Shown here in pieces: positions 1,748 through 51,637 of a stretch of 64,000 nt of DNA (its first letter is position 1; every line of letters starts with the position of its first letter). The notes beneath the pieces are model-generated. The model was not told the origin of the DNA, did not search any database, and saw nothing but the letters and a program-made list of their open reading frames with translations. The position numbers were made by a program, and so were the translations under genes. This DNA is from Lachnospiraceae bacterium (lineage in GTDB: Bacteria > Bacillota > Clostridia > Lachnospirales > Lachnospiraceae). The DNA lies in assembly GCA_021199655.1 (NCBI GenBank), contig JAJQHQ010000019.1, forward strand, positions 12,511 through 76,510, written 5' to 3'.

Positions 1748-3568
1748 ATGCTTATGCAAATCAGATATGGGATTGTGACAGCACAGAACTGTTTTTTACG
1801 CGGAAATAACAACGGGATAGAAGATGAGATTTTTTCCGGCTGGGCGGTTCGGGTTTTCCCGGAGACGGAGGAGAATGGCCGGGTAAAAATTGAGACCCAT
1901 TATGGATACGAAGGATATGTGTACAAAGACCAGCTTGCCCTGATCAGCCGGGAAACGCTTGCTGACAGGCAGGATCACACCCGCTTTTTCCGTATAGGAG
2001 TCCCTGCTGCGGATGTGCTGGATCAGCCGAAGGTGCAGGGACTGCTTCTGGAGCGTCTGCTGAAAAATTCAATCGTGGAGCGGGTGACCGAAGCCTCTGA
2101 CATGGACGGCTGGTGTCTCGTGCGCACTGCCGCCGGGGGTGTCGGCTATATGCATGAGAATTATCTGCGTATGCGTCAGGATGACGACGGATATTTGCTG
2201 GAGACGGAAAATCAGACAGAACCGGAATTGCTGCAGAAGAAGACGCGGACAGAGCCGGAAACCATGTCAGCCGGAAACAATTTACCGGAGAGCCAGATGG
2301 AAAATGGCAGGATCGGATACTTTGAAAAACGATTTCAGGAGAATCCTCCGGAAGAGGAAAGTTTTCGTGACGGCGTTGTGCGAAGCGCCCGCTCTTATCT
2401 GGGGGTACAGTACCGCTGGGGAGGAAAATCTTCTCTGGGGCTGGATTGCTCCGGCCTGGCATTTATGAGTTATCTGGAAAACGGCGTTCTGATTTATCGC
2501 GATGCGAAGATAAAGCCCGGATATCCGATTTTTGAAATACCGCGGGAAAAGCTGAAACCGGGGGATCTGATTTTCTTCCCGGGACATGTGGCAATCTATC
2601 TGGGAGAAGGGCGCTACATTCATTCTACCGGATACAAAAAGACTCCGTATGTTACCATCAACAGTCTGAACCCTGCGGATGAGGATTATCGGGCGGATCT
2701 GGCAGCTTCAATCACAGCCTGCGGGAGCATATTTTCAGCGTTAGAGCCTTCGCTTTGCCCGGAGGCAGAAAGGTTTGTTCATGAACCCGATGAAAAATTC
2801 GAAGCCCTGCGCAGGCGTCTGGATGCGATGCCCGGCAATCTCAGTGCGGTATATAAAGATCTGACGACCGGAGAGGTGTTTTTGTATCGGGAAGAAGAAC
2901 CGCATATTGCCGCGAGCGTGATCAAGCTGTTTTTGATGGCGGCTGTTTTTCAGGGATTTGCGGAGGGTGCTTTTTCTCCGGAGGAGCGGATTCTGATCCG
3001 GCGTGAGGACTGTGTGCCGTCCTGCGGGGTGCTGACATACCTGCAGGGAGAGTGTACGGTCAGCGTCCGTGATCTGACGGAGCTGATGATTATTGTCAGT
3101 GACAACACTGCTGCAAATGTCCTGTTTGATCTGGTCGGGGAGGAACGTCTTGCGGAGTTTTTGTCTGATAAGCTCGGCCTGAAAAAGACGGTGTTCCGCA
3201 GAAAAATGTTTGATGCCGGACGGGCCGCACAGGGAATCGAGAATTATGTGACAGCGGCGGACGCGGCCTGGCTGCTGGAGCGGATCTATAAAGGGGAACT
3301 GGTTTCCCGGGAGGCATCAAAAGAAATGTATCAGATCCTGACGCACCAGCGGCTGAACGGTAAAATTCCGTTTTATCTGCATACCTTCGCCAATGCACCG
3401 GTGATCGCGCATAAGACCGGTGAGGACAGCGGCGTCACGCATGACGTGGCCATAGTGGAAGGCGAGAGGCCGTTTGTGCTTTGCTTTCTTGGGAACGAAA
3501 CAAATGTGGCGGACTATGAACGGCTGATGGCGGAGACGGCACGGGATCTATATCTGAAAAGCTGGTAA
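1748..3568 (+). CDS. SH3b-like + NlpC/P60 gamma-D-Glu-diamino-acid endopeptidase fused to a class-A beta-lactamase-like serine hydrolase domain
   Basis: NlpC/P60 core GLDCSGL...PGDLIFFPGHVAIYLG...IHS. The C-terminal half has S-x-x-K (ASVIK), SDN (VSDNTA) and KTG (HKTGED). Start is uncertain (TTG 1733, ATG 1748 or 1754). Confidence 0.8.
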   Translation: MLMQIRYGIVTAQNCFLRGNNNGIEDEIFSGWAVRVFPETEENGRVKIETHYGYEGYVYKDQLALISRETLADRQDHTRFFRIGVPAADVLDQPKVQGLLLERLLKNSIVERVTEASDMDGWCLVRTAAGGVGYMHENYLRMRQDDDGYLLETENQTEPELLQKKTRTEPETMSAGNNLPESQMENGRIGYFEKRFQENPPEEESFRDGVVRSARSYLGVQYRWGGKSSLGLDCSGLAFMSYLENGVLIYRDAKIKPGYPIFEIPREKLKPGDLIFFPGHVAIYLGEGRYIHSTGYKKTPYVTINSLNPADEDYRADLAASITACGSIFSALEPSLCPEAERFVHEPDEKFEALRRRLDAMPGNLSAVYKDLTTGEVFLYREEEPHIAASVIKLFLMAAVFQGFAEGAFSPEERILIRREDCVPSCGVLTYLQGECTVSVRDLTELMIIVSDNTAANVLFDLVGEERLAEFLSDKLGLKKTVFRRKMFDAGRAAQGIENYVTAADAAWLLERIYKGELVSREASKEMYQILTHQRLNGKIPFYLHTFANAPVIAHKTGEDSGVTHDVAIVEGERPFVLCFLGNETNVADYERLMAETARDLYLKSW

Positions 3569-3591
3569 CTGTTCAGTACCTTCACAGTTAC
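3565..3591 (-). repeat. GTAAC-hairpin repeat, exact inverted copy
   Basis: GTAACTGTTCAGTACCTTCACAGTTAC is the exact reverse complement of 142-168. Its TAA (3566-3568) is the stop codon of the upstream ORF. Confidence 0.9.
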
Positions 3592-3711
3592 AAAAGCTGC
3601 ACATAAGATCGTCAGGGATTTGATGTGATATCCGGGAACTCTGATACATAACGATCCGGAACAGCAGGCCGCAGGCCTGCGCATCATAAAAGATACGGAG
3701 AATCATTCGAT

Positions 3712-6191: not shown

Positions 6192-6261
6192 CCGTTCAGA
6201 TGAGCGAATGATATACCCTGTAAAAAGAATGTTGAATGTGCTTTCTCACTCGCCGGGTTTT

Positions 6262-6311
6262 GCCCACAATCTCTGATTGCGGGCGTGGCCATCCCGCACA
6301 AAGTGCGGGAT
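6262..6311 (+). promoter_or_regulatory. glnA leader with mutually exclusive hairpins
   Basis: GCCCACAAT/ATTGCGGGC (6262-6284) and ATCCCGCAC/GTGCGGGAT (6291-6311). The alternative pairing GCGGG (6280-6284)/CCCGC (6293-6297) overlaps both. Confidence 0.35.
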
Positions 6312-6349
6312 AAGGTCCTCGCCGGGTGGCAGCAATAAGGAGGAACGAT

Positions 6350-9358: not shown

Positions 9359-9421
9359 TAAACAACCCGGTTTGAACCAGAAGTAAAGTGGATATATAAA
9401 TATATATTACATAATACAATC

Positions 9422-9448
9422 TTAACTGTGAAAGCACTGAACAGTTAC
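9422..9448 (+). repeat. GTAAC-hairpin repeat copy
   Basis: TTAACTGTGAAAGCACTGAACAGTTAC, ending 9 nt before the dapL Shine-Dalgarno. Confidence 0.8.
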
Positions 9449-9468
9449 GAACAACCAAGGAGGCCATT

Positions 9469-10683: not shown

Positions 10684-10826
10684 GTGACTATTCAGGACAG
10701 TACTTCGCACTTGCTGCGAAGTACGTATGAAAACGTATATTATGTAGGGAAAAGCCCCATCGCGGCGCGGAGACGCGATTTTAAATGGGCTTTTCCCTCG
10801 TAACTGTGAAGGGACTGAACAGTTAC
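10684..10826 (+). mobile_element. Composite MITE-like repeat (143 bp) bounded by GTAAC-family termini
   Basis: Left end GTGACTATTCAGGACAG starts one base after the dapL TAA. The right end is hairpin copy 10800-10826. Internal perfect stems are 10700-10724 and 10747-10758/10787-10798. Confidence 0.6.
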
Positions 10827-10843
10827 GAATGTAAGGAGCTCAG

Positions 10844-12620: not shown

Positions 12621-13484
12621 ATGGATTGTCAGAAAGGATTCCCAATAAAGCTTTATTGCATGTCTACAGGCATTCTTGATGATCCGGAAATATTCCGGAG
12701 GTATTACCGGGAGATGCCGGAAGGACGGCGTGCAAAGATTGACCGGGTGCGGATGGAGCAGGACAAAAAGCTTTCTCTTGCGGCAGGAATTTTGCTCAAT
12801 CGGGGTCTGCAGGAATTCGGCCTGCGTCAGGAAACAATCCGCATAGAGGAAGGCGCATACGGCAAACCATTCTTTCCGGACTTTCCGGATATCCATTTCA
12901 GTCTCTCCCATTCGCATGAGATGGCGCTGGCGGCCTTAGCTGATACCGAGGTCGGATGTGATATTGAATATCGAAAAAAGCCAAATGAAAAGCTGGCCGG
13001 ACGTTTTTTCTGCCCGGAGGAGAATGCCTGGATGACGGCCGCCCGGACGGAAACGGAGCGGGCGGAACGCTTTTATCGTCTCTGGACCTTAAAAGAGTGC
13101 TTTATCAAGGCTACCGGGCAGGGCCTGCGTCAGCCTCTGGACTCGTTTTGCTTTCGGATCGAGGATGCCAGGTTGCCATCATTGCTTCAATCGGCGGCAG
13201 GGTCTCCGCTGCCGCTTCGGTCCGCGTTAAACGTCTCCGCTTCGCTCCGGTCGGTGCTAAACGAACATCCACTGGATGTTCAGCACCGTCCACTGGACGA
13301 TCAGCGCCTCGCCGCGCATGAGAGAAACGCTTTGCGTTTGGGCGGCGCTGCCGTGGAGATTCGGCGCAGGAACAGTTCTGTGGAGGTCACGCAGACCTTT
13401 GATCAGGCGGAGTATGTGTTTGAGGAATATCGGATTGGCGGAGACGGAGAATATTGTGCGGCTGTGTGCCTGCGCAGCCAATGA
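12621..13484 (+). CDS. Sfp-type 4'-phosphopantetheinyl transferase carrying an in-frame repeat insertion
   Basis: GKPFFPD, HFSLSHS, VGCDIE, FYRLWTLKECFIKATGQG. Alternative start at ATG 12660 (MSTGILDD). Confidence 0.8.
   Translation: MDCQKGFPIKLYCMSTGILDDPEIFRRYYREMPEGRRAKIDRVRMEQDKKLSLAAGILLNRGLQEFGLRQETIRIEEGAYGKPFFPDFPDIHFSLSHSHEMALAALADTEVGCDIEYRKKPNEKLAGRFFCPEENAWMTAARTETERAERFYRLWTLKECFIKATGQGLRQPLDSFCFRIEDARLPSLLQSAAGSPLPLRSALNVSASLRSVLNEHPLDVQHRPLDDQRLAAHERNALRLGGAAVEIRRRNSSVEVTQTFDQAEYVFEEYRIGGDGEYCAAVCLRSQ
13191..13350 (+). repeat. GC-rich repeat modules (module 1 twice, module 2 once) read in frame within the PPTase ORF
   Basis: GTCTCCGCTYCGCTYCGGTCGGYG at 13202-13226 and 13233-13256. 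ATGAGAGAAACGCTTTGCGTTTGGGCGGC at 13318-13346. The same modules occur at 14525, 26302/26411 and 45716/45753. Confidence 0.8.
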
Positions 13485-14498: not shown

Positions 14499-14665
14499 CA
14501 TTAGTTCAGAACAGCAGACCACAGGTCTCCGCTCCGCTCCGGTCGGTGCTTAACGTGTGCCACTGGCACGCAGCACCCGCCCATCCCAAGAAGAAAAGAC
14601 AGCCTTTAGCAGACAAGTCTGCACAGGCTGTCTTTTCTTCTTGCTGCTGTTCTGAACTGTTTCAC
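14495..14665 (+). mobile_element. Composite MITE-like repeat (171 bp) with inverted termini
   Basis: Termini are GTAACATTAGTTCAGAACAGCAG (14495-14517) and CTGCTGTTCTGAACTGTTTCAC (14644-14665). It carries module 1 (14525-14548) and a 19-bp perfect stem (14587-14605/14625-14643). Its TAA is the stop of the upstream gene. Confidence 0.7.
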
Positions 14666-14796
14666 AATTTTACTTATTCTTTACATAAGAGGGATTATGC
14701 ATTTTACATAGCGTGACTAAAATGATTATCGTAACGGGGCACCGATAAGCCCCGGAATTCGATCAGAAAACGATTAGAAAAAGGAGATCATTTATT

Positions 14797-17467: not shown

Positions 17468-17482
17468 GATGCGTTTTTCCGC

Positions 17483-17509
17483 GTGATTGTAAAGGTACTG
17501 AACAGTTAC
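17483..17509 (+). repeat. GTAAC-hairpin repeat copy (left arm degenerate)
   Basis: GTGATTGTAAAGGTACTGAACAGTTAC, in the pstA-pstB spacer. Confidence 0.7.
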
Positions 17510-17642
17510 GTATGCAAAATAATCCGGGCAAAGGGAAAAATTCCGGCAGCTGTATTGTATGTAAGAGAATACAGGGAAATACTGGCATGGTAAAGAATCC
17601 AGGAATGTTTATGCAGGAGAAAGATCGAGAGGAACGAATAAA

Positions 17643-24906: not shown

Positions 24907-27090
24907 ATGAATATGCGTACAGAATATCAAAACAAAATGTGCGGCACTGAACAATTGTTTCTTGCAGCCTATGCACTGTGGCTGACCGCCACAGACCTGA
25001 AGCTGACGATGTGGGCATACGTTGCTCCTGCGTCGAGATTGTTCAGCTGTATGCAGCTTGCCGCGTATCTGCTGCTCGGGATACAGTTTTTGGTAAAGCC
25101 TGCATCAAAGAAACACTATGGGAAAAAGGATCTGGCCGGTGTCCTTCTGATTTTGTTCTGCTCGGTGCTTGTCTGGCATGCCGGCAGAACGAACCGGCAG
25201 ATTTTTCCGGTGTTGTTGTTTCTGTATTTTTCCGCTGATATTCCTTACAAAAAGATTCTCAAATGCTCTGTGGCAATACAGCTTGCGGTTATGACATTTG
25301 CCATTGCAACATCCGGCTGCGGGCTGATTGAGGATGTCCTCTGGTACGAAGGAGATCGCGTAAGACACAGCCTCGGATATGATTATTGCGGCTATCCTGC
25401 ACATATCATGCTGTTTGTGACGATGAGCTGGCTTTGTATCCGGGGAAAAGCGCATCTTGCAGACGCAGCGGTTCTTCTGGCTTTGAACGGTGTACTCTTT
25501 ATCCTCACGGACTCCAGATCGGATCTGCTTCTGGCAGTTCTGGGGATTGCAGGAGCATTCCTGTGGGGACGTGATTTTACAGTGGAGCCTGAAGGAAATC
25601 CTTTAGGAAGATGTTTGTCCCGCGTTTTTTGCCATGTCAGAAATTTTCTTGCAAAATTCGGCTTTCTGATCGCGTTTGTGATTTCGGTTGTCGTGCAGTT
25701 TTTTTATAATTCGGACAGCACCTTCTGGTACCGCATCAACGAGACTCTGAACGGGCGTTTGCAGCTGGGACATTCCGCGATACAGGAATATGGATTTTCT
25801 CTGTTTGGGAAGGCGATTCACTGGTACGGACAGGGCAGCCTGCGGCTGGGGATGTCGGATACCTATAATTATGTGGACAACTCATTTTTAAAAGAACTTC
25901 TGACGTATGGCTGGGTATTCGCTGTACTGCTGCTCATCGGATTTTACTTTACAGGGAAAAAACTGGCGCAGCAGGAAGAATGGATGCTCTGCTGGGCGCT
26001 GCTGATCACGATTGCTTACTCTGTCATTAATGCGCAGCTTTGCGTCCTTTCCTTTCAGCCGTTTATCCTGCTTCCGGGGATGCTGTTTGCATCAGAGAAA
26101 GGGGCGGGTAATTCGGGCGCAGAGTCTCCGCACACAGGTTCAAAGAAATCCGGGGAAACAAAAGAATTGAAAGAACTGAAAAAAACGGAAGAAACTGCCG
26201 GAAACAGCCGTATGAGATTCCTCAACACAGAGATTGATAATGTCACATTTGAGGAAGCGCTTACGTGGATCGAGGCATATCTGGATGACGCAGAGGAAGT
26301 GCTCTCCGCTCCGCTTCGGTCGGCGGATATCCCGCCCGAAGGGCGAGGATGCCCGCGCCCCACAATCGGAGATTGGGGGCATAACCCGGCGAGGGCAGAA
26401 TGTGCCGCCCATGAGAGAAACGCTGCGCGTTTGGGCGGCTACATTGTCACCCCGAATGTGGATCATATCGTCCGGCTGGAGACAGACCAGGCGCTGCAAA
26501 AGGCATATGAGAGCGCGTCCCTGGTGTTGACGGACGGGCAGCCGCTCATCTGGATTTCCAAATGGCTGGGTACCCCGATCAAAGAGAAAATATCCGGTTC
26601 GGATCTGTTCCCGAGAGTCTGTCAGCTGGCCGCGAAAAAAGGCTATCGGATGTATTTCCTCGGCGCGGGTCCGGGAGTGGCTGATATGGCAGCCCAAAAG
26701 CTGACAACAGACTATCCCGGACTGCAGGTGGTCGGCACCTTCTCTCCGGCATATGGATTTGAAAAGGATGAAAGTCAGATAAAAGAAGTCTGGCAGAAGA
26801 TACACCAGGCAAAGCCGGATATCCTGATCGCAGCACTTGGCACGCCGAAACAGGAAATTTTCCTGTGGGAGAGCCGGGAAGAACTGAACGGGATGCTGGC
26901 GTTCGGCATCGGTGCGGGACTTGACTTTGCGGCCGGGAACGTAAAACGCGCGCCGCACTGGATGCAGAAATGCGGTCTTGAGTGGTTCTACCGCCTCTGC
27001 CATGAGCCGAAACGGCTTTTTAAACGCTATCTCGTCGATGGCCTGAGGATCCTGCCGATCGTGTGGAAATATCGGAAAGAAAAGGGATAA
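24907..27090 (+). CDS. Fusion: polytopic O-antigen polymerase/ligase-like membrane domain + WecG/TagA (GT26) glycosyltransferase domain
   Basis: About 400 aa of multiple TM helices, a K/E-rich linker, then the GT26 core IVTPNVDHIV, TDGQPLIW, LGTPKQEIF, GAGLDFAAG. One continuous ORF. Confidence 0.7.
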   Translation: MNMRTEYQNKMCGTEQLFLAAYALWLTATDLKLTMWAYVAPASRLFSCMQLAAYLLLGIQFLVKPASKKHYGKKDLAGVLLILFCSVLVWHAGRTNRQIFPVLLFLYFSADIPYKKILKCSVAIQLAVMTFAIATSGCGLIEDVLWYEGDRVRHSLGYDYCGYPAHIMLFVTMSWLCIRGKAHLADAAVLLALNGVLFILTDSRSDLLLAVLGIAGAFLWGRDFTVEPEGNPLGRCLSRVFCHVRNFLAKFGFLIAFVISVVVQFFYNSDSTFWYRINETLNGRLQLGHSAIQEYGFSLFGKAIHWYGQGSLRLGMSDTYNYVDNSFLKELLTYGWVFAVLLLIGFYFTGKKLAQQEEWMLCWALLITIAYSVINAQLCVLSFQPFILLPGMLFASEKGAGNSGAESPHTGSKKSGETKELKELKKTEETAGNSRMRFLNTEIDNVTFEEALTWIEAYLDDAEEVLSAPLRSADIPPEGRGCPRPTIGDWGHNPARAECAAHERNAARLGGYIVTPNVDHIVRLETDQALQKAYESASLVLTDGQPLIWISKWLGTPIKEKISGSDLFPRVCQLAAKKGYRMYFLGAGPGVADMAAQKLTTDYPGLQVVGTFSPAYGFEKDESQIKEVWQKIHQAKPDILIAALGTPKQEIFLWESREELNGMLAFGIGAGLDFAAGNVKRAPHWMQKCGLEWFYRLCHEPKRLFKRYLVDGLRILPIVWKYRKEKG
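26299..26439 (+). repeat. GC-rich repeat modules read in frame inside the GT26 domain
   Basis: Module 1 at 26302-26326 and module 2 at 26411-26439. The centre 26327-26353 has an inverted copy at 38890-38915 (24/26 nt). Confidence 0.8.
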
Positions 27091-27095
27091 GATAT

Positions 27096-28349
27096 ATGAT
27101 CATCGCGATGGATCTTACTTCGCTGGACGACAATTTCACAGGGATTGAGCGCTATGCGCTGAACATGGCTCTGGAGCTTATCAGGGCAGCGGACGGGGAC
27201 AGCTTCGAACTTATTTTCAAGAATCAGATTTTTCCTGATTTTAAGCAGTATGAAAGTCAGGATAATATTCATTTTCATATCCTGCCGGGATGCAGCAAGC
27301 TGCTCTTCAACCAGTGGAGGCTGCCGCGCTTCCTGAACCGGCTGAACGCGGATTATTACCTGTTTTTTGCGTTTCCGATGCCGGTTCTCCTGCACAAAAA
27401 ACATGTGCTCTCCACCATCCATGACCTGGGCTGCTGGGACTGCCCGGAGACCATGAAGACGCAGATGGTCTGGTATTTTCGCCTGTCCTACCGGTGGGCG
27501 GTACGGCATGCGGAACGTACCATTACCGTTTCCGAATTCAGCAAAAGCCGGATACAGCAGATTCTGCATGTGCCTGAGGAAAAAATACTGGTCACTTACA
27601 ATGGTGTGTGCGGAAAGTTCCTGACAGATGAAGGAAAAAGACAGACGTCTGTATCGGAAGATTTTGCCGAAAAATATCACCTTCCCGACGAGTATATGCT
27701 TTGTCTTTCTACGTTGGAACCGCGCAAGAACATGACGCTGCTTTTAAACGCATATCTGGATCTTTACAGACAGGGGAAAATACGGACAAAGCTGGTGCTT
27801 GCCGGGCGGAAGGGCTGGAAGATCGATGAGCTGCTGCGGAAAGTGGGAGTGGCAGAGCCTGTAAACAGTTCAGACATTGCGTCTGACGCTACAGATGCAA
27901 CGGGTATTTCAGAGGCAACGGATGCATCAGATACAGCGGATGCGACAGATGCAATTCCTGTGACAATAACCGGATTTGTCGACGACGACGACCTACCGGA
28001 GGTGTACCGGATGGCAAAGTACTTTGTCTTCCCATCCATCTATGAAGGCTTCGGGATTCCGCCTCTGGAGGCAATGTCGCAGGGAGTGCCGGTGATTTCT
28101 TCCGATGCGGCATCCATGCCGGAAGTGCTCGGTGACGCACCGGTGTATTTTAAAAGCCAAGATGAGGAAGACCTGAAACGGGCGATTCTTGCGATGGAAA
28201 GCCTTACAGAGGCGGCGAGAGCGGATCGGGCGGCTGCCGGGATGCGGCAGAGTCAAAAATTCCGGTATGGACAGGAAGCGGAAAAAGTGAGAGACTGTCT
28301 GCATGGGCATGGATACCCATACCATCGGGCAGAACGAAAACGTTCATGA
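27096..28349 (+). CDS. Glycosyltransferase family 4 (group 1)
   Basis: E-x7-E motif EGFGIPPLEAM and GT-B architecture. ATG 27096 lies 6 nt after the upstream stop. Confidence 0.85.
   Translation: MIIAMDLTSLDDNFTGIERYALNMALELIRAADGDSFELIFKNQIFPDFKQYESQDNIHFHILPGCSKLLFNQWRLPRFLNRLNADYYLFFAFPMPVLLHKKHVLSTIHDLGCWDCPETMKTQMVWYFRLSYRWAVRHAERTITVSEFSKSRIQQILHVPEEKILVTYNGVCGKFLTDEGKRQTSVSEDFAEKYHLPDEYMLCLSTLEPRKNMTLLLNAYLDLYRQGKIRTKLVLAGRKGWKIDELLRKVGVAEPVNSSDIASDATDATGISEATDASDTADATDAIPVTITGFVDDDDLPEVYRMAKYFVFPSIYEGFGIPPLEAMSQGVPVISSDAASMPEVLGDAPVYFKSQDEEDLKRAILAMESLTEAARADRAAAGMRQSQKFRYGQEAEKVRDCLHGHGYPYHRAERKRS
27861..27953 (+). repeat. In-frame low-complexity (S/D/A/T) insertion beginning with a GTAAC-family terminus
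   Basis: GTAAACAGTTCAGAC (27861-27875) matches terminus GTAACAGTTCAGAAC of 51634. It is followed by degenerate ACAGATGCA-type repeats encoding SDATDATGISEATDASDTADATDA. Confidence 0.55.
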
Positions 28350-28397: not shown

Positions 28398-29780
28398 ATG
28401 AGTAATTACAGCAAGCTTTACTTTACAATAAAAAAATACGGTGGTGTATTCAAAAATATTGTCCCCAGGCAGACACGTATGGCTCTGAAGGACAAGCTGG
28501 TGCAGAAGAATATCGCAGAGTTTTTAAGTACAAAAAAATCGTATGACAGCAAGGCATGGCCTGACGGGGTGAACCTGATCGGCAGCATACGCGCCGAGAT
28601 GGGGCTTGGACAGAGCTGCCGCCTTGTAGCACGGCAGCTGCAGATGAGCGGCTGTCCGTTTTCTATCTGCAACATCGGATTCGACGATAACCTGCGGGAG
28701 GACGACCACTCCTGGGATGACTATATTTCCGTAGAAGTGCCGCCACTCTCACGGGCAACACTGGACGATCGCTTACAGAACAATCAGCGTCCGCCCTCGC
28801 AGGCTGCGGAATATGCCGCTGACGGGACAAACGCTTCGCGTCCGAATGGCTCATCGGCATTACCCTTTGGGATCAATCTCTTTCATGTGAACCTGTGCGA
28901 GATGGGAAACATGTTTTCTGCCAATTCATCGTTCTGGGACGGGCATTACAATATTGCATTCTGGCTCTGGGAGCTCGAAGACTTCCCAAAAGAGTGGGTG
29001 AAATACTGCAGTCTTTTTGACGAGATATGGACGCCCTCCGCATTTGCGGGGCGCGGCATGCAGAAGGTGATCGATGTGCCGGTGCGCACGGTGCCATACC
29101 GTCCGACGGCGCCCTTCGATGATTCCTGTACGAGAGAAACATTTGGGCTGCCGGAACATAAATTCCTCGCTCTGATCATGTATGATTCCAACAGCACCAC
29201 CGGGCGCAAGAACCCGCAGGGTGCGATCACGGCTTACCGAAAGGCTTTCCCACAGGAAGATAAGGACTGCGGGCTCGTGATCAAGATCAATAACGCAAAG
29301 GATGAGGATGTACGGTGCCTGAAAAAGGAACTTGATGGGTATCGTAATGTGTATTTTATCACTGAAGTGCTGGAAAAAGAGAAAGTAAACAGCCTGATTC
29401 GCTGCTGCGACGTCTATCTTTCCCTGCACCGCTCGGAAGGCTTCGGTCTGGTCATTGCGGAGGCCATGCTTCTTGGCACACCCGTGATCGCCACCAACTA
29501 TTCCTCGAACGTTGAATTCATGAGCGAAGAGGCATCCTGCCTTGTGGATTATCAGCTGATCAAAAATCCGCACACCGAGGGTGCGTACAAAAAGGGCTGT
29601 GTGTGGGCTGACCCGGATCTGGATCAGGCTGCCGAATACATCCGCCGCCTGAAAAACGACCGGGCATACTATGAATCAAAAGTAAAAAACGGAGCGGCAT
29701 ATCTCGACCGGGCATTGAATGAAGAAAAGCTGAATGCACTGTGGAGAGAGAGAATTGGAGCTGTGGGGGCTGATCATTGA
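28398..29780 (+). CDS. Glycosyltransferase, group-1-like C-terminal domain
   Basis: RSEGFGLVIAEAMLLGTPVIAT (E-x7-E). GAGGGA RBS. Confidence 0.75.
   Translation: MSNYSKLYFTIKKYGGVFKNIVPRQTRMALKDKLVQKNIAEFLSTKKSYDSKAWPDGVNLIGSIRAEMGLGQSCRLVARQLQMSGCPFSICNIGFDDNLREDDHSWDDYISVEVPPLSRATLDDRLQNNQRPPSQAAEYAADGTNASRPNGSSALPFGINLFHVNLCEMGNMFSANSSFWDGHYNIAFWLWELEDFPKEWVKYCSLFDEIWTPSAFAGRGMQKVIDVPVRTVPYRPTAPFDDSCTRETFGLPEHKFLALIMYDSNSTTGRKNPQGAITAYRKAFPQEDKDCGLVIKINNAKDEDVRCLKKELDGYRNVYFITEVLEKEKVNSLIRCCDVYLSLHRSEGFGLVIAEAMLLGTPVIATNYSSNVEFMSEEASCLVDYQLIKNPHTEGAYKKGCVWADPDLDQAAEYIRRLKNDRAYYESKVKNGAAYLDRALNEEKLNALWRERIGAVGADH
28738..28856 (+). repeat. Degenerate copy of the GC-rich module set, in frame in the glycosyltransferase ORF
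   Basis: CACTGGACGATC (28759-28770) is identical to 13291-13302. GACAAACGCTTCGCGTCCGAATGGC (28826-28850) matches module 2 at 18/25 nt in the same reading frame (LDD..., NA.R..G). Confidence 0.5.
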
Positions 29781-32391: not shown

Positions 32392-33399
32392 GTGCTGACA
32401 CCGAAGCAAAATCTGCTGGAGACACTGAAAAAGGATGGGAAACCGGAGTGTCTCTGCAATTCGTTTACGATGTTCCGCGGCATTCCGGGAGATCCTGTTT
32501 TTAAGCTTGTGAGAGGAAACCGTATCCGTGGGACAACGTCCCATGACCAGTGGGGGACGCTGATCCTGTTTCCGGAGGACGCGCCTGCGGCCGTGCCTTA
32601 CGTGACGCCGGAGAATCAGGTCATTCAGGATATCTCGGAGTGGCAAAAGTATGTAAAAGTACCGGATCTGGAAGGAAAATGCCAGGAAGGCTGGGAGGAC
32701 GCGATCGCGGCTGAGAAAGCCATCGACCACGAGAAATATCTGACCATGACCGTCATGGGGACGGGTATTTTCGAACAGCTGCATATGCTGATGACATTTG
32801 AGGATACGCTCATGAATTTCCTGCTGGAGCCGGAGGCCATGCACGAGCTGATCGATGTGATCTGCGAATACCGTCTCACTTACATGAAGCTGATCGTAGA
32901 GCATCTGCATCCGGACTGCATCTGTTCCCACGATGACTGGGGTTCCAAAAACAGTATGTTCATGTCGCCGGAAGTCTGGCGTGAGTTTTTCAAAGAGCCA
33001 TTCCGCAAACTGTATGATTATCTGCACGCCAACGGCGTTATTGTCATGCATCACGGGGATTCTTATATGGAGCCGATCGTGGAAGACATGGCAGAGATCG
33101 GCGTTGATATCTGGCAGGGTGTGCTGCCGACAAACAATATCAAAGCGATATCCGAAAAAGTCGGCGACCGGATGCTTCTGATGGGCGGGATCGACTCGGT
33201 GATCGACCGGGCAGATGCTACGGAGGAAGAGATCCGCAAAGAGACACGCAGAGCCTGCACGGAATACGGTGATCTGAAAGGGTTTATGCCGTGCATGACC
33301 TACGGAGGTCCCGGAACCATCTATCCTGAAGTGGAAACCATCATCATTGATGAGATCAACCGGTACAATATGGAAAAATATGGCGTAGCCATCTGCTGA
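32392..33399 (+). CDS. URO-D/MtaA-CmuA-fold methyltransferase (candidate substrate:corrinoid methyltransferase)
   Basis: Family-typical blocks FEQLHMLMTFEDTLMNFLLEPEAMHEL, SHDDWGSKNSMFMSPE, VMHHGDSYMEPIV, LMGGID. GTG start after AAAGGAGG. Confidence 0.7.
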   Translation: MLTPKQNLLETLKKDGKPECLCNSFTMFRGIPGDPVFKLVRGNRIRGTTSHDQWGTLILFPEDAPAAVPYVTPENQVIQDISEWQKYVKVPDLEGKCQEGWEDAIAAEKAIDHEKYLTMTVMGTGIFEQLHMLMTFEDTLMNFLLEPEAMHELIDVICEYRLTYMKLIVEHLHPDCICSHDDWGSKNSMFMSPEVWREFFKEPFRKLYDYLHANGVIVMHHGDSYMEPIVEDMAEIGVDIWQGVLPTNNIKAISEKVGDRMLLMGGIDSVIDRADATEEEIRKETRRACTEYGDLKGFMPCMTYGGPGTIYPEVETIIIDEINRYNMEKYGVAIC

Positions 33400-34965: not shown

Positions 34966-35979
34966 ATGTTATCAGCAAAAGAAAACTTTTTTGAGACAGT
35001 AAAACCGGACGGACATCCTGACAGAATCATGAAGCAGTATGAAAATCTGGCATTCCTCAATTCTAACCCGATTCTTCTCTATATCAGAGGAAAACGGTAT
35101 CCGGGCATGGCTCCGTCCAAAGACAAATTCGGGACAGAAGTTCTGTGGCCGGAAAACCAGATCGCGGCGATGCCCCATGTGACGGCAGATAACAAAGTAA
35201 TTCCGGATATTACGGAATGGCAAAAATATCTGAAGATCCCGGATATCGTATCGGAGTGCTCGGATCCGGCCCTGTGGGAGCCGTTTATCAAACAGGCGGA
35301 AGAATACCGCGCGGAGGGGAAGGTGTTGATGGGATACCTGCCCACCGGACTTTTTGAGAGACTGCATTTCCTGATGGGATTTGAGGATATGCTGATGAAC
35401 TTCCTGCTGGAGCCGGAAGCCATGCATGAGCTGATCGATGCGATCGGAGAGTATCGTTTCCAGTTTATGAAGATGTCGGTGGACTTCCTTCATCCGGACG
35501 TGATAATCTCCCATGACGACTGGGGATCAAAGAGAGCTCTGTTTATCAGCCCGGATACCTGGCGTGAATTCATCAAGCCGCAGTATGTCAGAATGTATAA
35601 ATACATGAACGACCACGGCGTGCTGGTTATGCATCACGCGGACTCTTATCTGGAGCCGATCGTGGACGATATGGTGGAGCTCGGCATCGACATCTGGCAG
35701 GGAGCACTTCCGGAGAACGACATTCCGAAGATCCAGAAACAGGTAAACGGCAAGATGACGCTGATGGGCGGCATCGACGCGTCAATCGTAGACCGCGTGG
35801 ATTCCACTGAGGAAGAGATCCGCAGGGAGACCAGACGTGCGCTTGAGGAATATGCTCCGAATGGACATTTTATCCCCTGCATCACCTATGGCGGCCCCGG
35901 CACCCTGTTTAAACATGTAGATCCGATCATCAACGATGAGATCGACAGATACAACAAAGAGGTATATGGGATCGGATGA
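34966..35979 (+). CDS. URO-D/MtaA-CmuA-fold methyltransferase, paralogue of 32392-33399
   Basis: Same conserved blocks (FERLHFLMGFEDMLMNFLLEPEAMHEL, SHDDWGSKRALFISPD, VMHHADSYLEPIV). ATG 34966 has better spacing to AAGGAG than ATG 34960. Confidence 0.7.
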   Translation: MLSAKENFFETVKPDGHPDRIMKQYENLAFLNSNPILLYIRGKRYPGMAPSKDKFGTEVLWPENQIAAMPHVTADNKVIPDITEWQKYLKIPDIVSECSDPALWEPFIKQAEEYRAEGKVLMGYLPTGLFERLHFLMGFEDMLMNFLLEPEAMHELIDAIGEYRFQFMKMSVDFLHPDVIISHDDWGSKRALFISPDTWREFIKPQYVRMYKYMNDHGVLVMHHADSYLEPIVDDMVELGIDIWQGALPENDIPKIQKQVNGKMTLMGGIDASIVDRVDSTEEEIRRETRRALEEYAPNGHFIPCITYGGPGTLFKHVDPIINDEIDRYNKEVYGIG

Positions 35980-36950: not shown

Positions 36951-37100
36951 AACCTTTTCCTACAAATCGCAGGAAAACAGAAAAAATATCAACAGTTTTG
37001 TGGATGGAGAACCAGATAAAGATATGGTAAATTTATGGCATGGACAAATTGCACAGAGACAAAGAACTGACCGTTCGGCAACCTGTGCAGAATGAACGAA

Positions 37101-37211
37101 ACAGTAATTGCGAAGGTGCTGAACAGATTGTACGAAGCGACAGCTGCGAAGGTACTGAACATACTGAACAGATTGTACGAAGCGGCAGCTGTGAAGACAC
37201 CGGGCAGTTAT
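37101..37211 (+). repeat. Tandem array of three degenerate GTAAC-hairpin units
   Basis: Units are 37101-37139, 37140-37184 and 37185-37211, each containing GCGAAGGTRCTGAACAG-like cores. The array ends 5 nt before the SD of the next gene. Confidence 0.7.
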
Positions 37212-38843: not shown

Positions 38844-39043
38844 ACGCGCAGGGGCATGTAAGGAGTTCTGTGGCCTGCGCTCGCCGCGTGGCATCCTCGT
38901 CCTTCGGACGGGATAAGCGCCACACGCGCCCCGCGCGGGCAAGCAGGAGTCGACAAGCCGCCGCCCACTCGATTCCGCCATAAATGAAATATGCACACGG
39001 CTGATTCGGTCAATGAAAATTATCAGACAAATAGCAAAAAAAT

Positions 39044-39083
39044 ATCAAAAAATCAAAAAAATCAAAAAAATCAAAAAAATCAG
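39044..39083 (+). repeat. Tandem 8/9-nt repeat (ATCAAAAAA) x5
   Basis: TCA recurs at 39045, 39053, 39062, 39071 and 39080, separated by A-runs. Confidence 0.85.
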
Positions 39084-39213: not shown

Positions 39214-40245
39214 ATGCACGATAGTGTATCATCTGCTATGCCTTGTTTTATGAACAAAATCACCTGTTTGTGTAACAAGAAACGGAAGCTGAAAACCCAG
39301 ATGAATGTGTCAAACGATGAAGATCAGGAATACACAACAGAAGGCAGAAATAATAATGCAAAGGCGAAACGTACGCGGCTGGATGATGCAGCTTTACGTG
39401 ACGCTATTGACATCCTGGATTCTATAAAATTCGCACTGACAGATGTCCTGCTGAATGCGGATTCGTTTGCGGGAGCCTGTAAAAAAAGGGGTTTGTATCA
39501 TATAAATATAAAAAAATTGTTGATTTCAAAAGCGTTTTCAGCCTGCCGGACAGAAGGGCCGCCTTTGCGGCTGGAAGAAACTGTTGTCCTGGAACCGGAT
39601 GGGTTTGAACAGCTTTATCTGGATGTTTTCGGGATGGATGCGATATGCGATGCAGAGCTTCCATTGGACTTCCGTCAGACGGTTTTTGATGTGATCGGGC
39701 AATTAAACGAGCAGGAGCAGAAGGTCCTCCGTTTACGATACGGGTTTTGCGACAAATACGGCATTCCGTTAACATTGGAAAAAACAGGATGTGAACTTGG
39801 CATTACAGCCCCTCGGGTTAAGGTAATTCAGAATAATGCTCTTTGCAAATTGCAGCACCCGCCTTTAAAAACCTGGCTGATGGAAGGATCCATTCAATAT
39901 CAGGCCAGACAGAAAGTTCTTCAGTCGGATCTGGATACATACAAAGCTACTGTTTACTCCTGGTTGAATAGTCATATTGCAAAAACAGACCGAGCCGGGC
40001 GGCAGGAAAACGATATAAAAAGCGACATAAAAGCCGAAGACATTTATTCACTGGGGATTGATGCCATGGGTTTTTCAAATCGAACCGGCAACTGTCTGAA
40101 ACGTGCCGGGAAAAACACGTTTCGTGACGTTCTTGAGCTTACGGAAGAGGATATGTCTAAAATACGCGGACTGGGGTGGAAATGCCGGGAGGAAATCAAT
40201 CGGAAACGCATGGAATGGCTGACGAAGCAAGATGATAATATTTAA
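39214..40245 (+). CDS. Protein combining a sigma-70 region-4-like HTH with an RNAP alpha-CTD-like helix-hairpin-helix domain
   Basis: EQEQKVLRLRYGF...LTLEKTGCELGITAPRVKVIQNNALCKLQHP fits the sigma region 4 pattern. GFSNRTGNCLKRAGKNTFRDVLELTEEDMSKIRGLGWKCREEI fits the alpha-CTD pattern. Start codon uncertain. Confidence 0.55.
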   Translation: MHDSVSSAMPCFMNKITCLCNKKRKLKTQMNVSNDEDQEYTTEGRNNNAKAKRTRLDDAALRDAIDILDSIKFALTDVLLNADSFAGACKKRGLYHINIKKLLISKAFSACRTEGPPLRLEETVVLEPDGFEQLYLDVFGMDAICDAELPLDFRQTVFDVIGQLNEQEQKVLRLRYGFCDKYGIPLTLEKTGCELGITAPRVKVIQNNALCKLQHPPLKTWLMEGSIQYQARQKVLQSDLDTYKATVYSWLNSHIAKTDRAGRQENDIKSDIKAEDIYSLGIDAMGFSNRTGNCLKRAGKNTFRDVLELTEEDMSKIRGLGWKCREEINRKRMEWLTKQDDNI

Positions 40246-40261
40246 GGTACTGAAGAGTTAC
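40244..40261 (+). repeat. Partial GTAAC-hairpin repeat (right half)
   Basis: AAGGTACTGAAGAGTTAC, overlapping the TAA stop (40243-40245) of the upstream gene. Confidence 0.6.
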
Positions 40262-40280
40262 GAACGAGCAGGTTCCGCAT

Positions 40281-42595: not shown

Positions 42596-45500
42596 ATGAA
42601 AGCAGGGCATCTGAAAAATAATACACATACAAAGACTGCTTTTTTAATATTTTGTATTGTATTATTTACAGTCTCTATGAGTATAATGAAGGTCCGTGCT
42701 GAAGATACAGAGTTTCCGTTTTCGGGAGATGGCTCAAAGGATTCCCCTTATCTGATTCAAAGTGTGGAAGAACTGTGCGAATTTCGGGATCTGGTGAATG
42801 AAGGAGAAGAGTTTCAGGACTGTTATTTTTACCAGACCGGGAATCTTGATCTCGGCGGTATGGATTGGGTTCCGATCGGGATTTATGGGAGCGGCCATTA
42901 CTTTTATGGTGTCTATGACGGCGGAGGACACTATCTGGAAAATCTTACAATTGTCGAGCCAATCGATCCGGGAGAGAATGAGTCATCCAGTAAGCCGGGG
43001 CTGTTTGGACAGCTGGCAGGCATTGTCCTGAATCTGGGAATCGAAAGCGGTGAGATTGAAGGCACTTACTGCGGCTCCATTGCAAGCCATGCTGTGTCAG
43101 GTGCTTCTCCTTATATTATCAACTGCTATAATAAAGCGGATGTTAAGGGCCGGCGGGCCGGCGGGATCGCTGACAACTTCAGCGGTGGAACGATCATTAA
43201 CTGCTGGTACAGCGCGAATATAGAGAGCTTATCCGGGACGGCATCAGGACCGGCTTCTTATGATGGAATACTGATTGACTGTTTCGGCATCACGGATGAT
43301 TACGCGGATTCCTTTCTGGGAACGATCATTGCCGCCCGCGGGACCGGTTCGGAATCGGATCAGTCGGGTGACAGCCGGATTTTTGATGCAGGTCTTTTTT
43401 ATTTGCCTGAGGAAATTGATATTGATATGCTGATCCCATGGGAATGGGACGAAGATGAAAATGAGCTGGTTTTTTCAGAAAACACTTCTGCACAGGTATC
43501 GGTAAATGCGGAAACGGCCTTTGAGGGAGAAGGGACAGAAGCGGAGCCTTATCTGATTCAATCCTGGTCGGATCTGTGTATGTTCCGCTATCTGGTAAAT
43601 ACAGGGAATGAGTTTTCCGGTATTTATTTTCAGCAGACAGCGGATATTGCAATAGAAAGTGACGACTGGATTCCTGTTGGTATCTGCGGGAGCGGGAATT
43701 ACTTTTACGGCATATACGACGGTGCGGGACATGCCATTACGGGCCTGAGAACCAAATACCATATGGATTCGGAACAGGACAGCAAAGGGCTTTTTGGGCA
43801 GCTGGGCGGTGTGGTAGCCAATCTCAGACTGGAAGCGGTCGATATGGAAGGGGCTTATTGCGGAGCAATCGCCGCAATGGCTGCAGGCAAAGGTGAGGAA
43901 CGTACCGCTGCTATTTTGAACTGCTTTGTCAGTGGTTCCATAACCGGATACCGTGTTGGCGGAATTGCAGATTACTTTTCAGAGGCAACCATAGCGAATT
44001 GTATCAGCGATGTTACGATCACATTATATGAAGATGCCGGGGACTGGGAAGACAATACCGGCGGTATTCTTTCTTCCAGTCTGGACACGAAGGTCTATGG
44101 ATGCCGTACAACGGCAGCGCAGGTCATGCCGGATGCATATACCAGCGCTACATCAGGTGTGATCACGGCAGAGGATCTGCAGGATAAAGGATTTGTCCTC
44201 CGGCAGAACATACGCACTGCATTGACTCAGGAACTGTTTGCAAACCGGTTTGGCGTCCGCCTGATGCAGTGGGAACTGACAGAGGAAGGCATTCTACAAT
44301 TCGGGGAAGGGCAGCTGTATCTCCTGCTGTTTGACTGGATGAATCTGTATCTGCTTCCGGTCCTGCTGCTTGTTTTTATCATTTCCATTCTGATATTAAT
44401 GAAAAAAACCGGTATTAAGAGGTTTGAAGATCGATATCATCAGCAGATTTCTGCGGTTCTGATCATTTCGGCGATCCTTTCCGTATTTGTTGACTGTGCC
44501 GCGTTTGGAACCGCAAAAGGGTCATTATGTTTTGGTAATCTGTGTTTTGTTATACAGATCCATGTTGTTTTTGCAGCATCGCTCCTGTTGTTTACAGGAT
44601 ATGTTCGTACTCACGGTCGGAGGAATATCCGCATTGGCCGCGGAAACAGGACCGGCCTCATTACATTGTCTGCAGTGATGCTGCTGACATTGATTCTGGA
44701 GCTGCGGCAATTTGGCATTACGCCTCTCTATGATGCCTCTCTATATTATGGAAGCCTGGTGAGAGGAGTGAAATTATTTCGCCTGGATCTGTTCAGCTAT
44801 ATCGGCGCTTTTGTATGCTGGAAATGGGCGCAGGGAAGTGCTTTGCTGATCGCTCCGCTTGAGTTTCTGCTGCCGGGACAGATGACAGGCGTATATGTGT
44901 CAAATATTATCATAACGGAAATTACGATCGTGGTCATGTACCGTCTCTTAAAAGAATCCATAAGTGACTGCTCTCCTGTGCTTGCGGCTCTGTCGGGCGC
45001 CATTTTGATTTTTTGTCCCTATCAGTTAGGAATGTTTACGTATCTTAATTTTGATACGTACCTTTCCTGTTATGTAATCTGGCTGTTATACAGCTACAGA
45101 CGAAAGAACAATCTGATGATTGCGTTTTGCGGCTATTTGCTTTGCTTCACCAAGATAACCGGGGGTATCTTTTACGTGTTGTTTCTTGTGGCAGCTTCTG
45201 TGTATGAAGCGCTCAGACGATATACCGGATCCTGGCTCAGACGTATGGCCGGATGGTGGAGCTGGCCCAGATGTATCATCTGGATGGTCCCGGGATTTCT
45301 CTATCTGGGCGCCTATCTGTTCGGCGACTGGCTGACTATACAGCACTTCGAGGGAGCCTATGTGATCTCGGCAATGGCTTCGGCAAAAACACTGGTTTCC
45401 GCAGGAAATACTCTGGTGCAGGCATTTGTATTTGGATTTCGGTGGCTTTTCCTGCTGATCATCATCGCTGCGGGGATTCTGTGGCTGATATGCCCTCCGG

Positions 45501-46432: not shown

Positions 46433-46468
46433 ACAGCAGCAAAAGAAACAGAAAGGAACAGACCTATC

Positions 46469-47824: not shown

Positions 47825-47858
47825 CTGTGATGGTACGGAACAGTATTGAAACAGTTAC
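47821..47858 (+). repeat. GTAAC-hairpin repeat copy with expanded loop
   Basis: GTAACTGTGATGGTACGGAACAGTATTGAAACAGTTAC. Its TAA (47822-47824) is the rfbH stop. Confidence 0.75.
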
Positions 47859-50697: not shown

Positions 50698-51637
50698 AGA
50701 GAAGAAAAAGATATCTGTGATGATCCCCTGCTATAATGAGGAAGAAAATGTGGTTCCCATCAGCGAAGCGGTCGTAGATATTTTAAATAAAGAACTGCCG
50801 GAATATGATTATGAAATCCTGTTTATCGACAACTGCTCTACGGATAAGACCAGAGATCTGCTTCGGGCTATCTGCAGTCAGAACAAAAAGATCAGGGCAA
50901 TCCTGAACGCCAGAAATTTTGGACAGTTTAATTCCCCCTACTATGGACTTTGCCAGACGACGGGAGACTGTACGATCTCTCTGTGCTGTGATTTTCAGGA
51001 TCCGGTGGAACTGATCCCGGTGTTTGTTCATGAATGGGAAAAAGGCTATAAGATCGTCAGCGGGATTAAGACGTCCAGCAAGGAAAATCGTTTTATTTAT
51101 TTTTTGAGAACCGTATATTATAAGCTGATCAAAAATATGTCGTCCGTGGATATGATCGAGCACTTCACCGGTTTTGGACTGTATGATAAAGACTTTATCC
51201 AGCTGCTTCGCGATCTGGAGGATCCGATTCCGTTTATCCGTGGGGTGGTTGCGGAATTTGGCTATAAACGAAAGGAAATCGAATACGAGCAGCCGAAACG
51301 GAGAGCGGGGAAAACACACAACAATTTTTATTCCCTGTATGATGCCGCCATGTTGAGCTTCACTTCTTACACGAAGGTCGGACTGCGGCTGGCAAGCTTT
51401 GTGGGATATATCTGTGCGTTTTTCAGTTTTGTAGTCGGAATCGTATATTTTGTTCAGAAGCTTCTGCACTGGAACGACTTTTCAGCCGGCATGGCGCCGC
51501 TGGTCATAGGACTGTTTTTCCTGTCCGGCATTGAGCTGATCTTTATCGGATTTCTGGGAGAATATGTCATGAATATCAACCAGAGAGTGATGAACAGGCC
51601 TCTGGTGATAGAAGAAGAGAGAATCAATTTTGAGTAA
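50690..51637 (+). CDS. GT2 polyprenyl-phosphate glycosyltransferase (GtrB/ArnC-like) with two C-terminal TM helices
   Basis: ISVMIPCYNEEENV, FIDNCSTDKT, CDFQDP. The C-terminal TM pair is typical of GtrB. Confidence 0.8.
   Translation: MSKEKKKISVMIPCYNEEENVVPISEAVVDILNKELPEYDYEILFIDNCSTDKTRDLLRAICSQNKKIRAILNARNFGQFNSPYYGLCQTTGDCTISLCCDFQDPVELIPVFVHEWEKGYKIVSGIKTSSKENRFIYFLRTVYYKLIKNMSSVDMIEHFTGFGLYDKDFIQLLRDLEDPIPFIRGVVAEFGYKRKEIEYEQPKRRAGKTHNNFYSLYDAAMLSFTSYTKVGLRLASFVGYICAFFSFVVGIVYFVQKLLHWNDFSAGMAPLVIGLFFLSGIELIFIGFLGEYVMNINQRVMNRPLVIEEERINFE

Follow-up and report, generated by a model that had tools for sequence, protein, structure and literature searches.

The question raised by this locus is why the gene for an Sfp-type 4'-phosphopantetheinyl transferase (PPTase) carries about 55 codons that are missing from its orthologues, and why the nucleotide sequence of those codons recurs in unrelated places nearby. 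The gene (12621-13484, + strand; Pfam ACPS, 2e-17) lies in a 64-kb stretch of a single Lachnospiraceae contig, JAJQHQ010000019.1, which is referred to here as the window, and its composite insert extends from about 13167 to 13355. An original prediction, made from the letters of the window, held that the insert is palindromic selfish DNA that made its way into a gene, where it keeps to the reading frame of the host and is tolerated, as is known for Rickettsia palindromic elements (RPEs). That reading is upheld: with a probability of roughly three in four, the insert consists of short GC-rich repeats that form hairpins, are nested in one another and have multiplied within a single Lachnospiraceae lineage in the manner of an RPE. 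The evidence for this consists of copies in non-coding DNA, a graded series of orthologues, a module that is translated in two frames, a predicted loop as the site of insertion and many unrelated host proteins.

That the segment is an addition is indicated by comparison with related proteins. Insert-free orthologues are 203-227 amino acids (aa) long, as against 287 aa here, and the alignment with Sfp (1qr0) ends at residue 188. In six orthologues of 56-65% identity (P0011-P0016), ...FCFxFEGExL runs straight into CSLRQ.YD.AEY with no segment between them, and closer relatives carry different sets of modules at the same site. The insert has a GC content of 0.63 and a negative GC skew, whereas its flanks have a GC content of 0.52-0.55 and a positive skew. 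In the AlphaFold2 model the insert, from which the peptide NALRLGGAAVEIR would derive, is a loop that is predicted to be disordered and that connects two strands of high confidence (176-182 and 247-249): the predicted local distance difference test score (pLDDT) was >90 in the core and <50 in residues 185-235. It was also observed that three distant PPTase homologues (P0008, P0009 and P0010) have unrelated extra segments of 30-50 residues in the same loop, a position that seems to be generally permissive or insertion-prone.

Two nucleotide modules had been recognized in the insert, and the recurrence of both was tested against dinucleotide-preserving shuffles. Module 1 (GTCTCCGCTYCGCTYCGGTCGGYG) had matches at 13233, at 14525 (0 mismatches) and at 26302 (1 mismatch), where 0 were expected from 100 shuffles; its first copy in the PPTase gene, at 13202, is a more degenerate tandem partner of the copy at 13233 (Tandem Repeats Finder: 13202-13263, 2 copies, 30-nt period, 81% matches). 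Module 2 was matched exactly at 13318, 26411 and 45753, again with an expectation of 0. The second of these loci is in a gene encoding a membrane domain fused to a WecG/TagA glycosyltransferase, here called TagA (24907-27090, + strand; Pfam Glyco_tran_WecG, 6e-61). The degenerate module 2 that had been proposed for a GT4 glycosyltransferase gene (28398-29780, + strand) was borne out by 70% identity over 46 nt between 28805-28850 and the TagA copy (family D4). What had to be abandoned was the treatment of the two modules as separate entities, as both are hairpin regions of one 84-nt (28-codon) element with two hairpins. Similarly, the tract at 45716-45737 that had been taken for a degenerate module 1 does recur, but it is joined with 45753-45781 in a single 84-nt unit, in which it is hairpin 2 of the RNA model.

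An intact copy of this unit is found on the minus strand at 45705-45788. It belongs to the GA-cis RNA motif (Rfam RF02987), more precisely to the subfamily designated type II below, and it aligned to the complete model (positions 1-88) with 45.6 bits and E=1.9e-6, the gathering score of RF02987 being 34.7 bits. In coding orientation the unit reads GTGGAAGCGCCCCCTCCCTTACGGTCGGCGGCAGG-TT-GCGCCGTCAATGAGAGAAACGCTGCGCGTTTGGACGGCGCT, of which the first part is hairpin 2 and the second part (module 2) is hairpin 1; its translation from the + strand is VEAPPPLRSAAGCAVNERNAARLDGAA. The RF02987 strand is antisense to the host gene, and the minimum-energy fold of the minus strand is the RF02987 consensus structure. 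The host gene (42596-46432, + strand) encodes a 1278-aa membrane protein, in which the insert peptide (NAARLDGAAVSAGK) occupies a loop flanked by hydrophobic segments. Some 40 residues around the element are missing from homologues of 35-42% identity. Copies in the fragments L002 and L003 also passed the RF02987 threshold. The PPTase, TagA and GT4 copies, which are split, partial or decayed, fell below it and were detected only by an nhmmer profile of the subfamily. The placement that gave the motif the 'cis' in its name (non-coding, in sense orientation and upstream of a gene) does not apply to the genic copies of the window, which are within open reading frames (ORFs) and antisense.

In the PPTase gene, hairpin 1 occupies 13308-13349 on the minus strand (type II profile positions 2-43, E=1e-5; exact pattern match), and in TagA it occupies 26394-26439, also on the minus strand (positions 5-50, E=1.2e-7; exact pattern match). 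The GT4 copy (28802-28850, minus strand) is decayed, with its stems largely lost and 70% identity over 46 nt to 26394-26439. All that the PPTase gene retains of hairpin 2 is a remnant (TCGGCGGCAGG) at 13191-13201 on the minus strand; DNA alignment with relatives L001 and L005, which both retain the full hairpin 2 head GTGGAAG[CT]GCCCCCTCGCAGTAGCTCGGCGGCAGG, indicates that the rest of hairpin 2 was deleted in this lineage together with a further module, C. TagA has a GA-cis-like head of the module 1 type (26293-26326, + strand) that links GA-cis hairpin 2 to another repeat, unit A: its local alignment score against 45703-45738 was 17 (shuffles: mean 6.4, maximum 14), and over 21 nt it shares 95% identity with the head of unit A. 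The hairpin 1 copies inside the window are 84-92% identical to one another, and other lineages have different stems with compensation, a pattern that suggests spread or homogenization within the genome.

The module content of close relatives forms a graded series, which was obtained from a DNA alignment of the window PPTase and four relatives with element boundaries taken from the nhmmer subfamily profile. The insertion site holds nothing in L006 (P0011; 65% identity, syntenic), module C alone in L004, and in L005 one intact GA-cis unit together with module C and a C-like module. In L001/L128, the flanks of which are ~95% identical, it holds module C and a GA-cis unit with a small hairpin and two copies of unit A lying between its two hairpins; the window is like L001 minus module C and most of hairpin 2. 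Progressively different module sets are likewise seen from P0004-6 through P0003 and P0002 to the window. Orthology was confirmed by the gene order of L006 and L004, that around P0011 being PPTase, a gene of ~309 aa and then the pst operon. In L001, hairpin 2 was located by nhmmer at 548-581 and hairpin 1 at 687-729, so the element is split there by ~105 nt of unit A modules. The TagA insert shares this layout, with a GA-cis-like head, modules D and C, and then hairpin 1. The PPTase and TagA inserts are nested composites in which a GA-cis-type element is split between its hairpins by smaller modules, and the inter-hairpin junction looks like a preferred landing site for the latter.

One of these companions, unit A, is ~55 nt long: its head is conserved and corresponds to module 1 proper, and to this is joined a nested hairpin, GGTGCT-AAAC-[stem-C-stem]-AGCACC. 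In the PPTase gene, a truncated or degenerate copy, the first copy of module 1, lies at 13202-13232 (+ strand; Tandem Repeats Finder and sequence alignment). It is followed by a full copy at 13233-13287 (+ strand), in which the head precedes GGTGCT-AAAC-[GAACATCCA C TGGATGTTC]-AGCACC. An intergenic copy (14525-14577, + strand) just 3' of a gene ending at 14498 is 80% identical to 13233-13287, and its inner stem differs from that of the PPTase copy yet remains complementary. The stems vary between copies with compensating changes, and in five full copies of unit A they are preserved with differing sequences. At 185-445 of L003, the variable region of a Clostridiales-1 RNA (RF01699, 76 bits) is enlarged by 111 nt of inserted sequence, made up of two unit A modules in tandem, and it follows that the modules also land in a structured RNA gene. 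The small hairpin CGTCCACTGGACG and its linker, read from the sequence at 13288-13307 (+ strand), are inside the split GA-cis element and belong to a portion of the insert that L005 lacks.

Module C consists of a hairpin (GCCCCACAATC GGA GATTGGGGGC) followed by ATAACCCGGCGAGGG. The TagA copy (26352-26395, + strand) is 80-86% identical to 6249-6290 on the reverse strand and to segments of the PPTase genes of L004, L005 and L001. It is translated as PTIGDWGHNPARA in TagA and as QSEMRGKTRRG in the PPTases of the relatives, that is, in two frames. This difference in translation excludes protein homology as the source of the shared nucleotide identity, as the original prediction had argued. Module D, a hairpin (ATCCCGCCC GAA GGGCGAGGAT) whose fold was computed, is located at 26327-26351 (+ strand) in TagA and has reverse-complement copies at 6291-6312 and 38885-38915, the second of which lies in an intergenic D-like hairpin at 38885-38921 (minus strand; 86-90% identity over 31-37 nt to 26322-26357). 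A pair of modules C and D forms part of the 5' leader of glnA (6243-6312, minus strand), in reverse orientation relative to the TagA copy and with 79-80% identity over 66-73 nt; it is also present in the syntenic contig L128. This pair is placed directly before the glnA ribosome-binding site, and an ANTAR-domain gene lies 3' of glnA. The L128 pair (about 2680-2760) is visibly more diverged than its ~95%-identical flanks, with C-to-T changes that preserve G-U pairing on the + strand. Unit A, module C and module D matched no Rfam family at E<=5.

Every genic copy in the window is within an intact + strand ORF, and the claim that no host is broken can be retained. The TagA insert of ~46 aa is immediately before the strand YIVTPN; when the protein was aligned with the TagA structures 7mpk and 5wb4, query residue 76 paired with chain residue 34 from 'YIVTPN' onward, leaving ~42-46 extra residues. 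The further claim of a shared frame is correct for modules 1 and 2, which are read in one frame (..PLRS.. and ..ERNA[AL]RL[GD]G..; an example of an insert-derived peptide is ...ERNALRLGGAAVEIR), and does not extend to module C with its two frames. Beyond the window it is also too strong, as a minority of copies in other genomes use a different frame or orientation.

The wider family was sampled by scanning metagenomes for the conserved hairpin 2 pattern. At least 120 loci were found, and 92 of the matches listed were family-like, with 68 distinct sequences; viral contigs gave one match, and it was without the flanking signature of the family. Two types of copy could be distinguished among the matches listed. 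Type I copies begin with AGGAGG, end with GAUAC and are intergenic and sometimes tandem, and they end 10-40 nt upstream of the start codon of a co-directional gene. The genes downstream are functionally unrelated and include eno (L015, L043, L071 and L088), guaA (L101), argB (L041), trpD (L097), nusA (L104), murD (L103), fliD (L099/L106), transporters and others, and between 1 and at least 4 tandem copies precede near-identical enolase genes. Hairpin 1 of type I carries AGGAGG-N5-8-AUG; a conserved leader peptide was considered as an explanation for this arrangement and rejected, as the AGGAGG-AUG start is not followed by a conserved frame.

Type II, the kind found in the window, has the form GGAA[AG]CGCCCCCTC...AAACGCnnnGCGTTT and has lost AGGAGG. 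Its copies are located after stop codons or, more commonly, inside ORFs; about two thirds of those sampled are genic, in a sample biased by a scan pattern that required hairpin 2. In other assemblies, the number of further unrelated proteins with a type II element in frame is at least 10. The hosts comprise a GH2 glycosidase (in a loop inside the Glyco_hydro_2 domain), an α/β-hydrolase (Abhydrolase_5), an AAA_23/SbcC-like ATPase with two copies, a sigma-70 factor with two tandem copies in the linker between regions 1.1 and 2, an S41 peptidase and a membrane protein, to which are added an NlpC/P60 protein (L022) that uses a different frame and a PD-(D/E)XK nuclease (L100) with two tandem copies on the opposite strand. 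Among the matches listed, approximately 12 of the 15 genic copies use one orientation and one frame, S2, and the exceptions are L022 and L100. S2 encodes E-A/T-P-P-R-x-S-S-A-A-x-R-A-x-N-E-R-N-A-S-R-L-G and is open in 14 of the 15 aligned copies, while each of the other five frames has stops in 4-11 of them; it also has the lowest fraction of hydrophobic, aromatic and Cys residues (0.15) and a low net charge. Non-coding copies of the various modules are found in the window at 14525-14577, 6243-6312 and 38885-38921; another follows a stop codon (479-562 of L003), and more lie in L009, L019, L026, L052 and L082. The peptide itself was of little use for enumeration: a 58-column (duplicated) profile had no match at E<=1 among 5.8 billion proteins, the 37-aa window peptide matched one protein among 1.84 billion representatives, and at such a length peptide searches are unable to count host proteins.

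The strongest competing explanation is that the genic copies work as GA-cis RNAs, either small RNAs or elements with a regulatory role, that are transcribed antisense to their hosts and maintained by their function as RNA. When 37 mixed type I and type II copies were treated together with MAFFT and RNAalifold, hairpin 2 alone was recovered and hairpin 1 was misaligned. The 15 type II copies were analyzed apart from type I, with the structure written by hand. In these, 92% of cells pair, and compensatory double changes were found in 10 of 21 pairs, including 7 of the 8 in the outer stem of hairpin 1 (helix 1); 0 of 500 shuffles reached the observed values, and slid controls paired at 33-52%. 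The invariance of hairpin 2 is due in part to the scan pattern, which required it. The two-hairpin structure of RF02987 is present with covariation support, and the covariation is strong. The Rfam-sense strand, which folds to the consensus as its minimum-energy structure, had a better z-score than the mRNA-sense strand in 5 of the 5 pairs tested, and the distance from canonical members of the family to the start codon downstream is short and fixed, which is what a regulatory leader would show. However, the hairpins of the PPTase and TagA copies are parted by 70-105 nt and hairpin 2 is partly deleted, yet these broken copies persist in frame. The whole-codon length and the near-exclusive use of a stop-free frame point instead to a translational constraint, no promoter or terminator of an antisense transcript was identified, and the tandem copies of L100 have the opposite orientation. 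Maintenance by an antisense RNA is thus considered unlikely.

Another rival is a protein module, a useful peptide or linker gained by domain shuffling for which nucleotide identity is secondary. One dominant frame and the conservation of EAPPRxSSAAxRAxNERNASRLG across unrelated hosts are what such a module would produce. The non-coding copies at 14525-14577, in L003 and in the five other fragments named above are not, nor are the two unit A copies inside the Clostridiales-1 RNA, the two frames of module C, the other frame of L022 or the opposite strand of L100. In addition, compensatory changes in the stems keep the pairing and alter the peptide, and AlphaFold2 predicts no fold for the segment. 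A protein module is on these grounds very improbable. It is harder still to credit that the segments are left untranslated through ribosomal bypassing or removal from the mRNA, as happens with the GC-rich 'byp' inserts of yeast mitochondria and in T4 gene 60. The composite inserts do form very stable hairpin clusters in the mRNA sense (PPTase, -75.8 kcal/mol, z=-4.0; TagA, z=-3.0), but a skipped insert needs neither a stop-free frame nor a whole number of codons; translational bypassing was rejected because all genic copies have both, and S2 is free of stops in 14 of the 15 aligned copies. An artefact of assembly or binning has next to nothing to commend it, for although the closest relatives are all metagenome-assembled genomes (MAGs) and repeats are known to cause misassembly, the same composite insert is at the same position in the independently assembled L001/L128 with flanks ~95% identical, related inserts are present in three further assemblies, and the reading frame is intact on both sides in every case.

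The spread of repeat DNA in frame is thus the preferred explanation for the PPTase insert. The basic element would be the 84-nt, 28-codon, two-hairpin unit of the GA-cis family, and unit A, module C and module D would have landed beside or between its hairpins. Genic copies would survive because their length is a multiple of three, because one orientation and frame is almost always free of stops, because the peptide specified by that frame is hydrophilic and has few hydrophobic residues, and because the sites are surface loops or interdomain linkers. The copies probably arose by transposition-like spread, not recombination; the peptide is presumably translated, and the use of the frame would reflect selection. 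The best guess for mobilization is an enzyme acting in trans that recognizes a single-stranded hairpin, a proposal prompted by a structure that is better formed antisense to the host genes and by junctions with no visible terminal inverted repeats or target duplications.

Several observations weigh against this explanation. The sequence examined was a 64-kb window of one contig and fragments of relatives, and the copy counts are those of this sample, not genome-wide. No transposase was found among the 14 window ORFs scanned against Pfam, with ~33 other ORFs outside the scan. The sole usable pair of an empty and a filled site, L004 and L005, showed no convincing terminal inverted repeats or target-site duplication: the junctions, TTCCG|GCCGTGG, are without duplication, and the only similarity between the ends is the 6-nt AGCGCC/GGCGCT, in a comparison complicated by another module difference. 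Mobility is for this reason something that we infer. The pairwise alignment score of unit A and GA-cis was within the shuffle range, so their kinship is not statistically supported, and the two are bridged by the TagA head alone. The exact module 2 pattern was found at just 3 loci among 185,579 species genomes, all of them in Lachnospiraceae MAGs, which means either that the subfamily is very narrow or that too little of it has been sampled. The frame bias, finally, could come in part from the ascertainment of the type II copies and from their shared ancestry.

The original prediction was also unaware of any description of such a situation in Firmicutes. This needs qualification, as the core of the element is RF02987 and BOX elements carrying ORFs are listed in a 2024 review (PMC10969869), but within the searchable literature no description was found that links GA-cis or Lachnospiraceae to in-frame repeats. 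A GA-cis subfamily of free-living gut Firmicutes whose members sit in coding sequence, in frame and antisense, and are nested and decaying appears to be new. The element core is already catalogued in Rfam and the phenomenon has a well-known precedent, so it is not a new category.

It can be suggested more tentatively, and with the balance at present tilted against it, that GA-cis as a whole is a mobile two-hairpin repeat of gut Clostridia with two lifestyles, and not, or not only, a cis-regulatory RNA. Type I would be the form that sits beside the ribosome-binding sites of unrelated genes, often in tandem, and type II the coding-adapted form, with one antisense frame open, in loops and linkers of dozens of proteins in certain Lachnospiraceae. 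That the canonical family precedes unrelated genes is no less compatible with a repeat element than with a dedicated riboswitch. If the suggestion were true, this would be the first RPE-like system in free-living Firmicutes, and recognition may take place at a single-stranded hairpin antisense to genes. A family that in one lineage is multi-copy, nested and decaying, with its antisense strand in frame, and that elsewhere precedes unrelated genes, might best be weighed as a repeat before a ligand is hunted. Were a comparable system at work in free-living gut Lachnospiraceae, the proteins of ordinary commensals would prove to be remodelled by selfish hairpin DNA as well. Recognition of the 28-residue segments in PPTases, glycosyltransferases, glycosidases, sigma factors and peptidases aids annotation, orthology calls and structure prediction, and the graded PPTase alleles, with none, one or several modules, provide a natural way to gauge the cost of an insert.

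The window contains other repeats. An AT-richer palindrome, GTAACTGT-N11-ACAGTTAC (27-44 nt; families D2/D5/D8), is present in both orientations at 138-171, 3561-3594, 9418-9451, 10796-10829, 17479-17512, 37100-37133, 40231-40264, 47817-47850 and 54630-54656, and also in L128 and L004; the copies at 3561 and 10796 are intergenic, and it could be an operator or another family of repetitive extragenic palindromic (REP)-like sequences. A 91-nt terminator-like hairpin element forms an inverted pair (14577-14667 and 51630-51720, 81% identity) with a partial copy at 46416-46455. It is bracketed by the inverted repeats GTTCAGAACAGCAG and CTGCTGTTCTGAAC, and in the tract 14525-14667 it comes immediately after the intergenic copy of unit A. 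An 18-nt tandem repeat (27892-27954; 3.5 copies, 73% matches) is in frame in a glycosyltransferase gene (27063-28349), where it encodes a low-complexity stretch of the DATDAS type. A 9-nt A-rich tandem repeat (AAAAAAATC, 5-7 copies) at 39016-39082 is upstream of an ORF (39214-40245) with sigma-70 region 4 and an RNA polymerase alpha-CTD, and a similar tract is inverted at 51939-51967. The large ORFs 42596-46432, 51885-54242 and 58015-60420 share diverged N-terminal repeat segments (families D3, D12, D14 and D18), and a 300-nt duplication relates 32761-33060 to 35344-35643 at 70% identity; together these suggest paralogous surface or polysaccharide-locus proteins.

Among known systems, the mycobacterial interspersed repetitive units (MIRUs), intercistronic repeats of mycobacteria, bear comparison with type I GA-cis only. 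Both lie between the genes of operons in variable tandem arrays with a Shine-Dalgarno-like AGGAGG and an AUG, but the frame of the type I mini-ORF is not conserved, and the comparison excludes the coding copies of the window. Intragenic repeats with in-frame use include Coxiella QMITE1, ERIC, the ORF-carrying pneumococcal BOX and the MITEs (miniature transposable elements with inverted repeats) of Anabaena (PMC10969869). Like the present elements, these are small repeats able to form in-frame fusions with host ORFs. They are set apart by terminal inverted repeats and/or target duplications, neither of which was visible at the one pair of sites compared here, or by a much larger size, and in-frame use is occasional there and dominant in type II. 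The REP sequences of enterobacteria and the bacterial interspersed mosaic elements (BIMEs) that they form are GC-rich imperfect palindromes, extragenic by definition and tied to REP-associated tyrosine (Y1) transposases (RAYTs). GC-rich imperfect palindromes, variable mosaics with short motifs and tandem clustering are common to both systems; REPs have no terminal inverted repeats or target duplications, and none were visible at the one pair of sites compared here. However, some two in three of the sampled type II copies are genic, which sets them apart from extragenic repeats, and no RAYT gene was seen in the limited sequence examined.

The GA-cis motif comes from a 2017 survey by Weinberg et al. 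of 224 candidate structured RNAs (PMC5737381). Both hairpins of the motif are found again in the element at 45705-45788, and one of them is the invariant CUGCCGCCGA...GAGGGGGCG hairpin, whose GA bulges are symmetric. The element differs in that canonical type I members are intergenic and carry AGGAGG, whereas the type II copies of the window are without AGGAGG, multi-copy, within ORFs, antisense and in frame, and are often split or decayed.

The system that the inserts resemble in behaviour is that of the RPEs, which are ~100-150 bp long and lie in frame in unrelated housekeeping genes (Ogata et al. 2000, as described in PMC10969869). The present unit is shorter (84 nt) and modular, its copies are nested, and its family overlaps with a catalogued RNA motif. 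RPEs are usually linked to reductive, intracellular genomes. Their host is an obligate intracellular alphaproteobacterium and the host here is a free-living gut Firmicute, so the two are likened by behaviour and a relationship in sequence is not expected. Both consist of short palindromic repeats in unrelated ORFs, with one conserved peptide frame and with non-coding copies as well. In both, the sites are ones that the fold of the host protein tolerates, which are predicted here to be the low-pLDDT loop of the PPTase, the position before strand 2 of TagA, the sigma factor linker between regions 1.1 and 2, and the GH2 loop.

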